A stretch of 64,000 bases of DNA, taken from the NCBI RefSeq assembly GCF_003018235.1, contig NZ_CP027437.1. One strand, 5' to 3'. The notes under the pieces are model-generated. The model worked only from the letters and a program-made list of their open reading frames with translations. It was not told the origin of the DNA and searched no databases. Positions 2,952 to 56,602 of the stretch are shown piece after piece. The translations under genes and the position numbers were made by a program. How positions within the stretch are numbered: the first letter of the stretch is position 1; every line of letters begins with the position of its first letter. Origin of the DNA: Escherichia coli. Lineage in GTDB: Bacteria; Pseudomonadota; Gammaproteobacteria; Enterobacterales; Enterobacteriaceae.

Positions 2952-3449
2952 CTAAATGATAGGGAACAGACTCACGGGGTAATTTAACGACAAAGCACGG
3001 AGTTGAAGATCCCCACAAGCCTGGAATAAAAAAGCCAGCGACAGGCTGGCAATGTGAGGGTAACGCAAAGTGCTTAGAAACAAAAAAAGGCCGCCATCGG
3101 CGACCTTCGAGGTATCTAGCGTGCTGGATACTTTCAGCTTCGCCTTCAATTCAGCGTTGATTTCTTTCAGGCGATCAACATCGTTTTTAAGTTTTTCAAT
3201 GTCTTGCCCTTTATTATCAAGGTCGCGCTGAAGACCTTTAATAATTTCTGTTTGGGCCGCCTGTACTTCTCGTGTCGTCTGGAGAGACTTATCAATATCA
3301 TCAACTTGGTTAATCAAGCGTGTACCGAAAAAGCCTACAACTAACATAGTTATCCCAACCATAAAGTTGAGAACCCAGACTTTTGTTCCGGAAGCAGTGT
3401 TTGGAGTTTCGTCGATAAAGTGCACCTTATGCCAGTTAAAGTTACCCAA
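2952..3449 (-). CDS. hypothetical membrane/coiled-coil protein; 3' part of ORF probably non-coding
   Basis: TTG-initiated track ORF; internal ATG precedes a TM segment and coiled coil; C-terminal about 45 codons overlie two hairpin+T-tract terminators. Confidence 0.25.
   Translation of the reverse strand: MGNFNWHKVHFIDETPNTASGTKVWVLNFMVGITMLVVGFFGTRLINQVDDIDKSLQTTREVQAAQTEIIKGLQRDLDNKGQDIEKLKNDVDRLKEINAELKAKLKVSSTLDTSKVADGGLFLFLSTLRYPHIASLSLAFLFQACGDLQLRALSLNYPVSLFPII
3030..3107 (-). terminator. two tandem rho-independent terminators in the Q-to-holin interval (tR'-like)
   Basis: On minus strand: hairpin GCCAGCCTGTCGCTGGC followed by TTTTTTATT, and hairpin GGTCGCCGATGGCGGCC followed by TTTTTTTGTTT. 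Confidence 0.45.
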
Positions 3450-3908
3450 CGTCTGCGCAGATCGTTAGATTCGGCAACATTGTAACTGGATAAGGAATAG
3501 AAAACCTTGGAATTTTAAGAAGAAACTGATTGATCGATTATTTAACGAGCGAACACATCCATACACCCCAGACGGGTACTACGACAAAGGCCATGAAATA
3601 AGTAACTTTTGCTTGAATGTTTTGCATTTCGCTTCCTTAGCAGTCCGATAAGTACTGTCTGCTCATCCAACCTAACGAATGTAGATCAGAATGACAAGTC
3701 TTTCGCGCTAATTTCAATTTGATATCTGTTCGTAAACATGATGGCGCGAAATATTACGCATGAAGTGCTTCTACATCAACATAAAAGTTACTTTTTTTGT
3801 GTTCACAGCATGTAAAGTAAAAGCCCCGCACGATGGCGAGGCTGTTAATTCTTTGTCGACCAACAAAGCTATGGCGACGATATCAGATTTACATGAAATA
3901 TAAGCGTT

Positions 3909-18713: not shown

Positions 18714-19056
18714 GGCCTGTCAGTTTCTTAAGATATCCAGACCAACCGCCACCAACTGGATACGAACAGGCCGCCTACAGGCAACACGTAAAGATCCAAC
18801 CAAGTCAAAATCTCCTTACCTCACAACACGGCAAGCCTGCATTGCGGCGCTTCAGTCTCCGCTGCATACTGTCCAGGTGAGCGCGGGTGATGGCATAACA
18901 GAGGAAAGAAAATGTCACTCTTCCGCAGAAATGAAATATGGTATGCCTCGTATTCGCTCCCGGGCGGGAAACGAATTAAGGAATCTCTTGGCACAAAGGA
19001 CAAGCGGCAAGCTCAGGAGTTGCACGACAAGCGAAAAGCAGAACTCTGGCGAGTAG
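18685..19056 (+). CDS. xis: putative excisionase
   Basis: ATG with GAGGT RBS within GTG-initiated track ORF 18655..19056; winged-helix-like N-terminus ([26 protein letters not shown]); 3' end overlaps int in another frame. Confidence 0.4.
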
Positions 19057-20075
19057 AAAAGCTAGGGGATTTACCTGATGTCACTTTTGAAGAGGCCTGC
19101 CTAAGATGGCTTGAGGAAAAAGCTGATAAAAAATCTCTCGATTCAGATAAAAGCCGGATTGAGTTCTGGCTTGAACATTTTGAGGGTATAAGGCTTAAAG
19201 ATATCTCGGAGGCAAAGATTTACTCTGCTGTAAGCAGAATGCATAACAGAAAGACGAAAGAAATATGGAAACAGAAAGTTCAGGCCGCCATCAGGAAAGG
19301 TAAAGAACCGCCTGTTTATGAACCAAAGCCAGTATCAACTCAGACAAAGGCAAAGCATCTTGCCATGATAAAGGCCATTCTCCGTGCTGCAGAACGCGAC
19401 TGGAAGTGGCTGGAAAAAGCGCCTGTCATCAAGATACCAGCGGTCAGAAACAAGCGAGTCAGATGGCTGGAAAAGGAGGAAGCAAAACGCCTTATTGATG
19501 AGTGCCCCGAACCACTGAAATCTGTCGTCAAGTTTGCGCTGGCAACTGGTCTGAGAAAGTCGAACATCATAAATCTGGAATGGCAACAAATCGACATGCA
19601 GCGACGAGTTGCCTGGGTGAATCCAGAAGAGAGCAAATCAAACCGCGCCATTGGTGTGGCGCTGAACGATACCGCCTGTAAAGTGTTGCGTGATCAAATA
19701 GGCAAGCATCACAAATGGGTGTTTGTACATACCAAGGCGGCTAAGCGAGCAGATGGAACATCAACGCCTGCGGTCAGGAAGATGCGCATCGACAGCAAGA
19801 CATCATGGCTATCAGCTTGTCGTCGTGCAGGAATTGAAGATTTCCGTTTCCATGACCTCAGACACACCTGGGCAAGCTGGCTGATTCAGTCAGGCGTCCC
19901 ATTATCAGTGCTTCAGGAAATGGGCGGATGGGAGTCCATAGAAATGGTTCGTAGGTATGCTCACCTTGCGCCTAATCATTTGACAGAGCATGCGAGGAAA
20001 ATAGACGACATTTTTGGTGATAATGTCCCAAATATGTCCCACTCTGGAATTATGGAGGATATAAAGAAGGCGTAA
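18912..20075 (+). CDS. intD: tyrosine integrase IntD
   Basis: 387-aa product with C-terminal catalytic R...HDLRHT...Y motifs; matches K-12 DLP12 IntD length and position next to argU. Confidence 0.9.
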
Positions 20076-20090
20076 CTGATTGAATTGTAA

Positions 20091-20167
20091 TGGCGCGCCC
20101 TGCAGGATTCGAACCTGCGGCCCACGACTTAGAAGGTCGTTGCTCTATCCAACTGAGCTAAGGGCGC
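20091..20167 (-). tRNA. argU: tRNA-Arg (anticodon UCU), argU; prophage attachment site
   Basis: Reverse complement reads GCGCCCTTAGCTCAGTTGGATAGAGCAACGACCTTCTAAGTCGTGGGCCGCAGGTTCGAATCCTGCAGGGCGCGCCA, a cloverleaf with UCU anticodon. Confidence 0.9.
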
Positions 20168-33506: not shown

Positions 33507-34400
33507 CTACAGCGAAATACAGGTCCCCGCTTCGCCCGCCAGCGTCTCTTCAATCCGCGATAACGCCCCAATCCACGCAGGTTTGCCACGGCTTCTGACA
33601 TAGCCACTCACCGCCATTACCTTCGGCCCCATCGAACCATCGGCTTTGGCAAATGGCGCTAACTCATCCGGTGTGGCATGGCGAATGGCACGTTGCTGCG
33701 GGGTTCCCCAGTTTTCATATACCGCATCAGCATCGGTGAGGATCACCAGTCCATCGGCATTAATCTGCTCGGCGAGCAACGCAGCGGCGAGATCTTTATC
33801 AATCACCGCTTCACTCCCTGCCCCATCATCCGTCACAGGCACACCGCCGCCGCCGCTGCAAATCACCACATGCCCTTCTTTGAGCAACAACTCAATAGCT
33901 TCGCTGTCGAGAATTTTACGCGGTTGCGGAGACGCCACCACCCGGCGCAAGTATTTACCATCACGTTTCATCTGCCAGCCGTAAGCTGCTTCTAGTGCCT
34001 CTTGTTCTTCTGGCTGATAAACCGGACCAATAAACTTCTCTGGCTGCAAAAACGCCGGATCATCAGGCGAAACCTCAATGCGCGTCAGCACCGTCGTCAC
34101 GGGCGGCATCTGCGGCTGTGCGCTCAAGCTCTGCGCCAGCATATAGCCAATCATCCCCTAGCTTTCCGCCACCAGCACATCCAGCGGATACGGTTCTACC
34201 TCTTTCCACGCCAGATTCTGTAACGCCAGCAGCCCCACCTGCGGCCCGTTGCCGTGAACAATCGCCAGCCGATAAGAACGGGCCAGGCGCGCCAGCGCAG
34301 GTACAGCGCTGGCGATATTGCGATATTGATTTTCTGCCGTCAGCGCCTCACCGCGCTGAAGCAAGGCATTGCCCCCAAGAGCTACAACCAGTGTTTTCAT
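33507..34400 (-). pseudogene. ybcF: carbamate kinase-like YbcF interrupted by an in-frame amber (TAG) codon
   Basis: 80-aa ORF (34158..34400) and 215-aa ORF (33507..34154) are in the same frame, separated by TAG-GGG; read together they reconstitute the roughly 297-aa carbamate kinase (...VLVAES*GMIGYML...). Confidence 0.7.
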
Positions 34401-35212
34401 GGTTTTCCTTGTAATAATTGTTGACCAAGCCAGAACCCCAGCAGCGTATCTGCCCCTGACGTATGCCCCAGCGCCAGCAGCGAATCAATCGCAACAGCGG
34501 TACGTTTCGGGCAACTCAGAGCATGAACAAAGTGCAGGAGTGGCGAGGCGAAATATCCTTGCGCGGCATAACGTAAATAACTGACGCTCACCGCTGTGGT
34601 AACGAGTTGAAGATGGTCGGAACAGGCAAAAAACGGGCGACCGGAGCGCGCATCTAAAGCGCCATAATACCAGGCTGCCAGCAGCATTCCCGTCAGCGTG
34701 TCATCATGACTCGGCGTTAATCCCGGCCCTTTACCCAGCCAGTGCCGCCAGTCGGTCTTAACGCCATTGAGCGCGGCCTGAAAACAGTGACGAAACTGGC
34801 GTAATTCAGCAGGCAGCGGATCGCTTGTCGCCATCGCCAGTGGCCCGAAAAGCCCGGTTTCCTCCGCGCGTTGCATCCATGCAGCTGCAAGCGGTTGAGG
34901 ATGCGCAGGCGGCGTAATACGCAGCAAACAATAACGCTGTGGCTGTTTAACCGTGAAACGCCCGAGGCGAATCCCTTGTGCCACAACCTGCGGTCGTTCA
35001 TTGCCGCATAATCCACCACATAACGCATCGAATTGCGCGCGGCGAAGCACCCATCCTCCGGGGCCGAAACCACTACCCTGACGATGCAGCGTTAACAGTT
35101 CGCCGCTTTCCGTCATCAGGTTAATCGCCCGTCGCCACACTCCCGCTAACCGCCAGGACTGGCAATAATTCGGTGCGCTACGGCTGGCAAGCAGAGGATG
35201 GATGATCGTCAT
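34397..35212 (-). CDS. ylbF: YlbF (DUF2877 family, allantoin-associated)
   Basis: 271 aa from internal ATG ([18 protein letters not shown]...). Confidence 0.8.
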
Positions 35213-35222
35213 TGCGCGATCC

Positions 35223-36482
35223 TCAACCAATCCCCATGCTTTCAGCCAGTGCTTCCAGCGCCTGTTCAAAGCACGCCAGCGGTGCCCGCACAGTGCCTGC
35301 GCCAATCTGCCCGATCCCCGCCTCTTTATGGGCGATACCGGTATTGATGAGTGGCGTAATGCCGGTTTCTACCACGCGACGAATGTCCAGTCCCAGGCAC
35401 GCGCCCTGAAAATCCCAGCTTGGGATCTGCAACTGCATATTGCGTTCAAGGAAGATTTCCGCCATCTCTTCAGATACAGCTCTGGCCGCTTCCATGCCAC
35501 CCGCACCGACAAAGCGCGTTACGCCAGGCGCTGCGATCATTGCCGCTCCGCCAATACCAAAGGTTTCGGTAATTGCGCTATCGCCCATATCCGGGTTCGC
35601 CTGCTCCTGCGAGAAGCCGGTGAAAAACAGACCTTGCGGAGTGTTTACAGGCGCAGTAAACCAGCGTTCACCCAGCCCGCTTACCCGAATCCCGAACATA
35701 TTGCCGTTGCGGGTCATAGCCGTAACGATGCTGCCTGCGCGGATCATCGCGCCAGCATCCATCGCCGCCTTGCAGTAGGCCATCGCGAGGTTGAGGAAGA
35801 ACTGATCGGTCACGTTGAGGAAATCCATCACTTCCGCAATGTGCTGTTTATCATGATCGAGGCGAGCAATTTGTGGGGCCAGCGCACGCATTAACAGTGC
35901 AGAGGAAGCAATGTTGCGTTGATGGAACTCATCGCCCATGGTAATGCCCTGCGCCATCATCGCCGTGAGATCGATACCGCGCTCCATGCGCCCCAGCGCC
36001 GCGCTTAATACTGGCATTAACACATCGCGCATCCAGCGATGGCGAGTCAGGACATCTTCGCCGTAAGCGCCAAAACGCATCACTTTGCCGATACCTTCGT
36101 TGAGGTTGCAGTACGCCCGGTTGCCGTCGGTCACGTTCTCGACCACCAGCATCGGCATACTGGCAGAAGTAATGCCGCCCATTGGCCCGACGGCATTCAC
36201 ATGGTGACAAGGAATGAAGTTCACTTCCCCCTGATCCAGCATTGCCAGCGCCTGCGCTTCATCTTTCGCCCAGCCTTCAAACAGACATGCGCCCACACAT
36301 GCCCCTTTCATGGGTCCGGTCATCTCCTGCCAGCGCATTGGCGGCCCGGCGTGAAGCAGTGTTTTGCCCTCGTTTAGTTCGCTGATAAGTGAAGAAGCCG
36401 GTTGCACATCCAGCCAGTGTGGACGAGCACGACGAATTTGTTCGATAACCGCAGCATTGGCTTGCGCCACTGATGTAAACAT
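35223..36482 (-). CDS. ylbE: YlbE (DUF1116 family), intact
   Basis: 419-aa uninterrupted ORF. Confidence 0.85.
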
Positions 36483-36491
36483 GGGAACCCC

Positions 36492-38159
36492 TTATTGCAA
36501 ACGTTCTAATAAACGAGCCAGTTTTTTATTGCCGCCGGCGACTGGCGACCATTGGTAATGCACAACCGGTTTGCTGGCGCTTTGTAGCGCCAGCGCAAAG
36601 CTGCGTAATCCGATGTTAATCACGGCGACGTTTTCCAGTAATGACGGTGTGTGTTGCTGTGTGGCAGGCGAGAGCGGATGAATTAACGCTGCCGCCAGCA
36701 AGGTGGCTTCCGGCAGCGAACTCACGACCGCGATCCCCGCATCTTCCAGCGTGGCGATTTGTTGCGAGCGGCATTGCGGGTCACGTTCGGTGCCTGTCAC
36801 CGTGGCAATGGCATACAGTGGTTGATTGTCTGGACGCGCGGCACAGGCTTTTTGCCAGGCGCTCACCAGCGAGGCGGCAGGATCGGCAGTCGCACCGAAG
36901 CCAATCACGACATCAAGCAGCAACACGCGCACTTGCGGTTTAGCGCCGAGATCGGCAATTAACAGGTTGCGTAAGGTCGGGTCGATCATCGGATGGGGAC
37001 GCCCGACGGTGTAAAAATCATCGCCCAGGTCGAGGATCTGATGTCCGTCGGCGTCGAGCATCATGCCATGTTGATGGGTATCGTCGGCTTCCACGCCAAG
37101 GTGTCCGGCAAGTAATCCCGCCGCTTCAGCAGCCAGCGTACCGCCGGTATACAAACCGCAAATAAATCCGCTGCTGACAGGTGCTATTGCGTTACGTCGC
37201 GCCGTGACGCGTGAAAGCAGGCAAGCCAGGCGTGCGGCCTCATCAAGCGAGGAGGCAAACCAGACATTCTCGTCGCGGGCCACCGCCGGGGTATAACCTA
37301 AAAACAGCGCCACCGTCGGTTTGCCAGTTGCTTTCATGGCATTAACAATTTTCAGACGCACAGCTTCGGCAGGTGGTTTTGAAACAAATGCCAGCACTTC
37401 GCTTTTCTCGTCGGCGCTTAACATTTCCAGCGCCGTTAGCGCACTGATGCCGCCCACTTCAAGGCTGAGGTCGCGCCCGCCAAGACCAATCGCGTGGGTA
37501 ATTCCCTCACCTGCCAGCGCAATCTGTGAGCACAGCTCCTGAATCCCGGTACCGGAAGCGCCAATGACGCCAATGTTGCCTTCCGGCATCACGTTAGCAA
37601 AAGCCAGCGGCGTGCCGGCAATCATCGACGTACCGCAGTCCGGCCCCATCACCAGCAAGCCTTTTTCCCGCGCGCGGGTTTTAAGTTGGATTTCATCTTC
37701 CAGCGTGACGTTATCGGAGAACATCATCACGTTGAGGTTGCGATCCAGCGCCTGATTCGCCAGCTCCGCCGCATACTCGCCAGCCACTGAAATCAGCGCC
37801 AGACTGGCGTCGGGTAATTTCTGACAGGCACTGTCCCAGCGACGCACCTGCGTCAACGCCTGGCTGCTGCCTGACCCCTGCGCCAGTTGTTTTAGCGCCT
37901 CTTCAAGCTGCTGCATAATCGCCTGCGCGATCCCCGCATCCGCCGCTTCGCTACGAATTGCCACGCAAATATCGTTCGGCGTGGCGTTATTAAAATCGTC
38001 ATGCCAGAAACCTGTGGTATCTAATAACGCTTTATTGGCGGGCGTACCCATCATTACGGAAACATCATCAACATTTTCTGATTCGCTGAGTTTTCGTGAA
38101 ATAATCATTAAACTGACCGAATCCTGAAAACACCCTTTTTTAATAAAGGCGTGGATCAT
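36492..38159 (-). CDS. fdrA: FdrA (acyl-CoA synthetase/succinyl-CoA ligase alpha-like)
   Basis: 555 aa CoA-binding/ligase-like protein. Confidence 0.85.
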   Translation of the reverse strand: MIHAFIKKGCFQDSVSLMIISRKLSESENVDDVSVMMGTPANKALLDTTGFWHDDFNNATPNDICVAIRSEAADAGIAQAIMQQLEEALKQLAQGSGSSQALTQVRRWDSACQKLPDASLALISVAGEYAAELANQALDRNLNVMMFSDNVTLEDEIQLKTRAREKGLLVMGPDCGTSMIAGTPLAFANVMPEGNIGVIGASGTGIQELCSQIALAGEGITHAIGLGGRDLSLEVGGISALTALEMLSADEKSEVLAFVSKPPAEAVRLKIVNAMKATGKPTVALFLGYTPAVARDENVWFASSLDEAARLACLLSRVTARRNAIAPVSSGFICGLYTGGTLAAEAAGLLAGHLGVEADDTHQHGMMLDADGHQILDLGDDFYTVGRPHPMIDPTLRNLLIADLGAKPQVRVLLLDVVIGFGATADPAASLVSAWQKACAARPDNQPLYAIATVTGTERDPQCRSQQIATLEDAGIAVVSSLPEATLLAAALIHPLSPATQQHTPSLLENVAVINIGLRSFALALQSASKPVVHYQWSPVAGGNKKLARLLERLQ

Positions 38160-53500: not shown

Positions 53501-54610
<1,110 letters not shown>

Positions 54611-54677
54611 TGGGCGGTATTCTGAAACGGCGATTGTCGTGAGAACAGAATGGTTGCACCAGAATACAGATATAAAA

Positions 54678-54710
54678 AAACCGACATGACAGTCGGTTTT
54701 TTTATTTTTT
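54678..54710 (+). terminator. selU terminator
   Basis: AAAAAAACCGACATGACAGTCGG followed by TTTTTTTATTTTTT. Confidence 0.55.
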
Positions 54711-55021
54711 CCGCCCAAGACTTGGTGGTTCCGGGCAGAAATGAAACAGTCCTCATCTAGCAAGTGAATTATAAGTCAGGATGCCTACATATTCAAACAG
54801 CTATGTTGGCGATACAATCCCGACGCTAGTAGTGATACTGCCTCAAGGGATTACCGCAGTGCGGAAAAGTACTTTTAAGTCCTGGTCAGGATACAGGTGG
54901 TGCTGATTCTGGTGCTCTAATTTGGAGAGAGGCAGTCCTCATCTAGCACATGAAGAAAATCATAGTTACAGGCAACGTAAGGGTAAGCTGTGATTGTCTT
55001 TCTCCCTTAAGGGAGCAACGG

Positions 55022-55105
55022 ATGAAAACTTTTCTCGATAAAGTTCTCATCGTTCTTAAGGCGCTAATCGCGCTGCTGGAACTGATTCGTCAGTTTATTG
55101 AATAA
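55022..55105 (+). CDS. DinQ/TisB-like small hydrophobic peptide (candidate type I toxin), 27 aa
   Basis: MKTFLDKVLIVLKALIALLELIRQFIE; single amphipathic TM helix; start codon preceded by hairpin CTCCCTTAAGGGAG; resembles recalled DinQ (ALIALLELIR core). Confidence 0.35.
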   Translation: MKTFLDKVLIVLKALIALLELIRQFIE

Positions 55106-55203
55106 CTGAGGAAACGTAGCTAAGGCCGAAGGTTTACCACCTTCGGCCTTTAAAAAAACCGACATGACAGTTGGTTTCATATTTATTGCCAAAATGCATA
55201 CTG

Positions 55204-55240
55204 TTCATGCCAGATGCGGCGTAAACGCCTTATCCGGCCT
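55204..55240. repeat. REP element
   Basis: GATGCGGCGTAAACGCCTTATCCGGCCTAC palindromic unit. Confidence 0.55.
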
Positions 55241-55277
55241 ACACAATCTTGCAAAATCAATATATTGCACGCTCTTC

Positions 55278-56571
<1,294 letters not shown>

Positions 56572-56602
56572 CGTAGCGCATCAGGCAATCTAACACCTGT
56601 CA

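Follow-up and report, generated by a model that had tools for sequence, protein, structure and literature searches.

[quoted passage not shown] The three preceding genes are now named allFGH and, according to PMC11326118, encode oxamic transcarbamylase. At the level of mutation, the closest described cases are found at Dcm sites, which are known hotspots of C-to-T change repaired by Vsr, the T:G mismatch in CTWGG/CCWGG being the substrate of Vsr very-short-patch repair (PMC13250602, PMC2715241, PMC3527292, PMC5306230). By the account given in PMC5306230, the classic amber mutations of lacI that arise by 5-methylcytosine deamination are changes of CCAGG to CTAGG (Coulondre, Miller, Farabaugh and Gilbert 1978, cited therein).

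The DNA analysed here, a stretch of 64,000 nt of E. coli (contig NZ_CP027437.1 of assembly GCF_003018235.1; the whole stretch is referred to as the window), carries ybcF/allK on its minus strand (33507..34400) in an amber-inactivated form. With the TAG read as Gln, the window gene resembles K-12 YbcF/AllK in exhibiting 99% identity across 297 residues, in being the last gene of its operon and in adjoining the convergent purK; unlike K-12 YbcF/AllK, the window copy contains one in-frame stop and ends after residue 80, and the enzyme is predicted to be absent. The amber codon in turn resembles the lacI hotspots, as a CAG within CCAGG has become an amber CTAGG by a C-to-T change at the inner C, i.e. 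the base methylated by Dcm, and as the change recurs at the same base. Unlike the lacI hotspots, the allK case derives from natural isolates and public assemblies rather than from laboratory selection and concerns a different gene, and in this comparison methylation of the allK site is presumed and recurrence is counted in assemblies, not as a mutation rate. On balance, the window is considered likely to carry a real, heritable C-to-T substitution at nt 241 of ybcF, most plausibly the product of 5-methylcytosine deamination at a Dcm site, which resulted in a lineage-specific and tolerated loss of function.

The split reading frame and its operon

On the minus strand, an ORF of 80 aa (34400..34158), which contains the GGNA and HGNGPQVG motifs and includes a TAG stop (34160..34158), is followed by GGG (34157..34155) and by an ATG (34154..34152) that represents the native Met83, lies 3 nt past the stop and opens a second ORF of 215 aa extending to 33507 (33507..34154), such that positions 34152-34160 consist of exactly TAG-GGG-ATG. 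The two start codons are 246 nt, or 82 codons, apart and both ORFs therefore share one frame, in agreement with an earlier note on this DNA, which had described them, with matching coordinates, as co-framed minus-strand ORFs separated by TAG-GGG. The proposal in that note that the ORFs jointly reconstitute a full-length carbamate kinase-like protein was likewise borne out. When the TAG was read as Gln, the resulting 297-aa product matched the NCBIfam equivalog model NF006926 for carbamate kinase end to end (residues 1-296 of the 297-position profile) at 620.3 bits against a cutoff of 416, and K-12 YbcF was also matched over its full length, while solved carbamate kinases matched this product at E = 1e-89 or weaker. 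An uninterrupted frame for the whole enzyme is absent from the window ybcF, owing to the in-frame TAG at codon 81, and the gene is, as judged from its sequence, a pseudogene of the carbamate kinase family NF006926 rather than a functional member.

The amber codon (34158..34160) replaces an ancestral CAG encoding Gln81, the mutated base being gene nt 241 (window 34160). The ancestral context of this codon is AGC-CAG-GGG (AAG-CCAGG-GGA; AAGCCAGGGGA), which contains the Dcm site CCAGG, with the change falling on its inner C. The motif is CCAGG in K-12, in strain C4 and in 3,656 complete genomes of E. coli; in the window it reads CTAGG, i.e. a putatively deaminated Dcm site (34157..34161, minus strand). 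The earlier note had given CAG for K-12 and had allowed for K-12 itself having the stop; MG1655 was found to carry CAG at codon 81. What escaped that note is that the mutation falls on the Dcm-methylated cytosine of the motif, a circumstance that would account for both the mutation and its recurrence.

The remainder of the operon is intact. The genes ylbF/allH (34397..35212; 271 aa, PF11392 AllH), the stop of which overlaps the ybcF start, ylbE/allG (35223..36482; 419 aa, PF06545 AllG) and the first operon gene fdrA/allF (36492..38159; 555 aa) are all encoded on the minus strand. The order allF-allG-allH-allK downstream of allDCE is conserved and collinear with K-12, with intact neighbours, as is the window from argU to ybbA, minus the rhsD-ybbC-ylbG segment. 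Furthermore, the other 34 protein genes common to K-12 and the window, including the whole all/gcl/glx cluster, are full length and stop-free; the ybcF lesion is isolated and not part of a decaying genome. Since purK is convergent downstream and ybcF is the last gene of its operon, the stop is without polar effect.

Recurrence of the amber codon and the Dcm motif

The CAG allele nearest to the window gene, from strain C4 (isolated from a cow), differs from it at 2 of 894 nt, one of which is the C-to-T at nt 241, and the ybcF of GCA_902841295.1 equals the C4 allele plus T241. The substitution is thus recent on a C4-type allele, which supports the option of a recent inactivating mutation given in the earlier note; the comparison with other E. 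coli ybcF alleles that had also been proposed there returned CAG for K-12 as well as for C4. Over 3,709 nt that include the TAG, contigs L016 and L017 from separate runs match the window at 100% identity, while L018 (2 mismatches in 3.7 kb) and GCA_902841295.1 (3-4 mismatches per 3.7-3.9 kb) also contain the TAG. Its presence in these four sequences indicates that the TAG marks a small clone rather than a single read pile-up.

TAG at codon 81 was observed in no complete RefSeq E. coli genome of the approximately 5,400 that could be assessed, based on 35-mer queries that required the T inside every 28-mer word and that were accompanied by positive controls; neither TAG 35-mer matched the GTDB species representative genomes scanned or the JGI metagenomes. 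A 61-mer identity-band search for the TAG in complete genomes was dropped, as flanking SNPs made its results ambiguous. In public assemblies, the exact 80-aa product was indexed in 229 blocks and the exact 215-aa C-terminal product in 38 blocks.

Within the 24 longest contigs per look-up, the Q81 amber was observed on nine ybcF haplotype clusters that are 7-59 nt apart, these being small numbers of clusters that are perhaps not all independent. Three TAG haplotypes have a CAG sibling that differs at nt 241 only, namely L011 (sibling strain C4), L004 (TUM1886) and L007 (CFSAN061763). A further amber carrier, L009 (GCA_002965825.1, locus 3001-3900), exhibits at most 95.1% identity to any complete E. 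coli; its normal ybcF stop is changed to TCG, which lengthens the ORF by two residues. The split ybcF of Shigella flexneri 6603-63 (EJL17468.1, EJL17469.1) and of CP026792.1 resembles that of the window in having the same Gln81 amber on a CCAGG-type allele and the same 80-aa product, while its haplotype differs from that of the window by 26 nt. In the corresponding Shigella-like loci L006 and L008 (GCA_000281795.1 and CP026792.1), a deletion beside an IS1 has removed allF, allG and the 5' part of allH, whereas the window operon is otherwise intact.

Other nonsense changes of ybcF served for comparison. Hypothetical fragments for eight other nonsense positions were all present in the collection, and four of these positions were examined at the DNA level. 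Q81* was represented by nine clusters (seven in the first look-up) and 229 blocks, 117 of them with contigs above 5 kb. The corresponding values were three clusters, 243 blocks and 134 blocks with contigs above 5 kb for Q54*, which is mostly one clone; seven clusters, 96 and 20 blocks for Q90*; four clusters, 81 and 11 blocks for Q95*; and three clusters, 66 and 14 blocks for Q119*. At roughly one third to one half of the listed occurrences, the 94-aa and 118-aa fragments represented genes that ran off the end of a contig (about half for Q95*, about a third for Q119*). Raw contig or block counts of truncated products were rejected as a measure of a hotspot, since they are confounded by clonal expansion (Q54*) and by contig-end truncations. 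The other CAG-to-TAG changes of ybcF also occur on several backgrounds (three to seven clusters each among the longest contigs), and recurrence alone is therefore no proof of a hotspot.

A synonymous dimorphism next to codon 81 provides a natural control. Among complete genomes, 3,656 read GCG GAA AGC CAG, which forms the Dcm site, versus 1,744 that read GCA GAA AGT CAG, in which the changes upstream of codon 81 abolish the Dcm site (TCAGG). The AGT type, to which O157:H7 strain PV15-279 belongs (sequences L058-L065), accounts for about a third of complete E. coli and results from linked synonymous changes at window 34161 and 34167 (gene nt 240 and 234). Within the 24 longest contigs per look-up, all nine Q81-amber clusters were located on the CCAGG allele and none on TCAGG, whereas the control nonsense alleles Q54*, Q90*, Q95* and Q119* were distributed over six AGC (CCAGG) and 11 AGT (TCAGG) clusters. 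This difference in the AGC/AGT split between amber and controls corresponds, for a small sample, to a one-sided Fisher p = 0.0016 (0.005 on the first look-up only), and the protein look-up from which it derives is blind to the synonymous AGC/AGT difference. AGT-TAG alleles were also sought via 215-aa fragments on TCAGG-background haplotypes, including the O157:H7 type, and in these the fragments were found to result from frameshifts upstream or from 1-nt indels, with no amber. The AGC/AGT split represents the main evidence, at the level of alleles, that the event would depend on the Dcm motif.

Two Dcm sites are present in ybcF, offering four methylated-C positions on both strands, and deamination creates a stop only at nt 241. 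At the second site (nt 115/117, synonymous either way), no C115T or G117A was found in 57 sequences, which included one G117C. Between K-12 and the window, hotspot-type transitions were observed at 2 of 178 methylated-C positions, against a baseline of 1.5% for all C/G sites; from this comparison and from the second ybcF site, no general excess at Dcm sites is visible. In the approximately 39 kb shared with K-12 (L037), 14 K-12 Dcm sites are altered in the window, of which three are CCTGG-to-CCAGG swaps that retain the motif and two are inner-C transitions. Long-read-type deletions at the codon-81 motif in other strains provide an indirect hint of methylation.

The proposed course of events would begin with Dcm methylating the inner C of CCAGG at codon 81, presumably also in this strain. 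The 5-methylcytosine at nt 241 would then have spontaneously deaminated to thymine, and the ensuing T:G mismatch would have escaped Vsr very-short-patch repair. CAG (Gln81) would thereby have become an amber TAG that cuts the carbamate kinase after 80 of 297 residues. The allele would be tolerated for two reasons: allK closes its operon, so that polarity does not arise, and its deletion hardly affects anaerobic allantoin metabolism.

Competing explanations

One rival is a consensus or sequencing error; if, for example, 5-methylcytosine in the Dcm motif had been misread in nanopore data, recurrence confined to CCAGG backgrounds would likewise be mimicked. Nanopore consensus errors do cluster in CCAGG/CCTGG, motifs that hold about 70% of all errors for some basecallers (Wick et al. 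2019, PMC6591954). In many database copies with a split ybcF, a single nucleotide has indeed been lost at this motif (CCAGGGG to CCAGGG or CCGGGG). Of 11 such copies (L069, L071, L072, L075-L081 and L083; codons 80-82), nine derive from single-contig assemblies of 4-5 Mb; these eleven copies have the appearance of consensus errors in long-read data, arising at a methylated motif or homopolymer, rather than of real pseudogenes. The window change involves the same 5-nt motif as the errors reported by Wick et al. (2019, PMC6591954), which the deletion copies of ybcF resemble, but it is a substitution rather than an indel, it recurs in other contigs and the remaining Dcm motifs of the window are intact: 75 of the 89 K-12 motifs are unchanged, with only two inner-C transitions and no systematic erosion. 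Moreover, the TAG occurs with no mismatches over 3.7 kb in the 21.8-kb k-mer contigs L016 and L017 from other runs, and TAG alleles are also present in the draft assemblies AGRC01 (Shigella flexneri 6603-63, EJL17468.1) and JZQL01, which by their accessions we take to be early drafts; the k-mer contigs and early drafts probably represent short-read data. A sequencing error, which the earlier note had listed as an option, is thus disfavoured by the 100% identical contigs from other runs and by the uneroded motifs, and is regarded as highly improbable. A real mutation in a Dcm context that is merely coincidental, caused by a replication error or by deamination of an unmethylated cytosine, would be compatible with the repeated mutation of non-Dcm CAG codons of ybcF to TAG and with the comparison of K-12 and the window, in which inner-C transitions at Dcm sites showed no overall excess. 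Against such coincidence, nine of nine amber clusters among the longest contigs are on the Dcm-motif allele while the controls are mostly non-Dcm (p about 0.002), Q81* has the most clusters (seven in one look-up versus three to seven for the controls) and its 117 blocks above 5 kb compare with 11-20 for Q90*, Q95* and Q119*, the 134 of Q54* being mostly one clone; coincidence is accordingly considered rather unlikely. The distribution of the TAG might alternatively reflect a single old allele spread by homologous recombination instead of repeated mutation, given that recombination occurs in E. coli and that site 241, paired with many other sites, fails the four-gamete test. This failure, however, is expected equally from recombination and from recurrence, and spread by recombination would require, on every background, an exchanged tract short enough to end before the nearest polymorphism on either side, three TAG haplotypes having CAG siblings identical at the other 893 positions. 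As one carrier (L009) reaches no more than 95.1% identity with any complete E. coli, and as the TAG is never on the common AGT background within the 24 longest contigs per look-up, a recombinational origin appears very unlikely, and repeated mutation, most plausibly by deamination at the Dcm site, remains the preferred reading.

Two further possibilities concern the product rather than the origin of the allele. If a supE-type suppressor tRNA encoded elsewhere in the genome were to read the amber, full-length AllK would be made; suppressor tRNAs are uncommon in natural isolates, and the 64 kb of the genome in view provide no direct support, the 64-kb window containing no suppressor tRNA and tRNA-Arg(UCU) argU as its only tRNA. 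TAG81 is, moreover, not conserved, CAG being present in about 5,400 complete genomes, and nothing suggests programmed decoding, rendering suppression extremely unlikely. A split enzyme, in which termination at UAG is followed by restart at AUG83 and the 80-aa and 215-aa pieces assemble, would draw on the distance of only 3 nt between the stop and the native Met83 ATG, a geometry that can permit termination-reinitiation, and on retention of the allele in the clone for long enough to accumulate 3-4 SNPs per 3.7-3.9 kb. Conversely, no good Shine-Dalgarno sequence precedes this ATG, the break lies inside the conserved core of the amino-acid-kinase fold, and the Shigella-type loci L006 and L008 carry the amber in an operon destroyed by IS1, which fits decay; assembly of a functional enzyme from two pieces is therefore exceedingly improbable.

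Consequences for the enzyme and for annotation

The split point is located within the core sequence AE(S/T)(Q/E)GMIGYM, with the N-terminal glycine-rich motifs on the 80-aa fragment and the remainder on the 215-aa remnant, and active AllK would not be expected to be produced from the amber allele. The window allele is a genuine instance of a long-known type of event, i.e. a recent, lineage-specific amber knockout of a dispensable gene, which most probably originated by 5-methylcytosine deamination at a Dcm site. In annotations of this genome, ybcF/allK should be marked as a pseudogene. In anaerobic allantoin breakdown, the final, ATP-yielding step of the oxamate branch is probably missing from the strain, and little phenotype is expected.

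The locus offers a view of a textbook mechanism in nature, with an amber that recurs only on Dcm-motif alleles and a synonymous AGC/AGT dimorphism that acts as a built-in control. It also calls for caution in the use of databases, where a substitution at a Dcm site should not be judged in the same way as an indel, as many split ybcF copies with 1-nt deletions at this motif resemble long-read artefacts. A more far-reaching notion, according to which the codon-81 Dcm site would be a natural mutational switch at which 5-methylcytosine deamination repeatedly knocks out allK in E. coli, in Shigella and in an Escherichia lineage other than E. coli, some knockouts perhaps being favoured by selection in certain niches instead of simply tolerated, is quite doubtful; if true, the codon-81 site could report Dcm/Vsr activity in wild populations.

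Several observations relate to the surroundings of the gene. The 22-kb stretch 24000-46000 exhibits at most 98.4% identity to any of 5,426 complete E. coli genomes, in contrast to the window ybcF allele, which is 99.8% identical to that of C4; in this region, the window lineage is poorly represented among complete genomes, or mosaic. In L018 (SRR18885539), which belongs to the same clone as the window, allG (ylbE) is split into ORFs of 237 aa and 179 aa (locus 673-1932), possibly a second lesion of this operon. The K-12 rhsD-ybbC-ylbG segment is missing at window 54610-56600, and an IS110-family transposase ORF (55387-56367, minus strand) is located between selU and ybbP. At the other end of the window, a lambdoid prophage lies within positions 1-20167, adjoining tRNA-Arg(UCU) argU (20091-20167), with an integrase (18912-20075) that is 99.5% identical to K-12 IntD, as well as a replication protein O homologue, a CI-like S24 repressor, RecT and a large serine recombinase.
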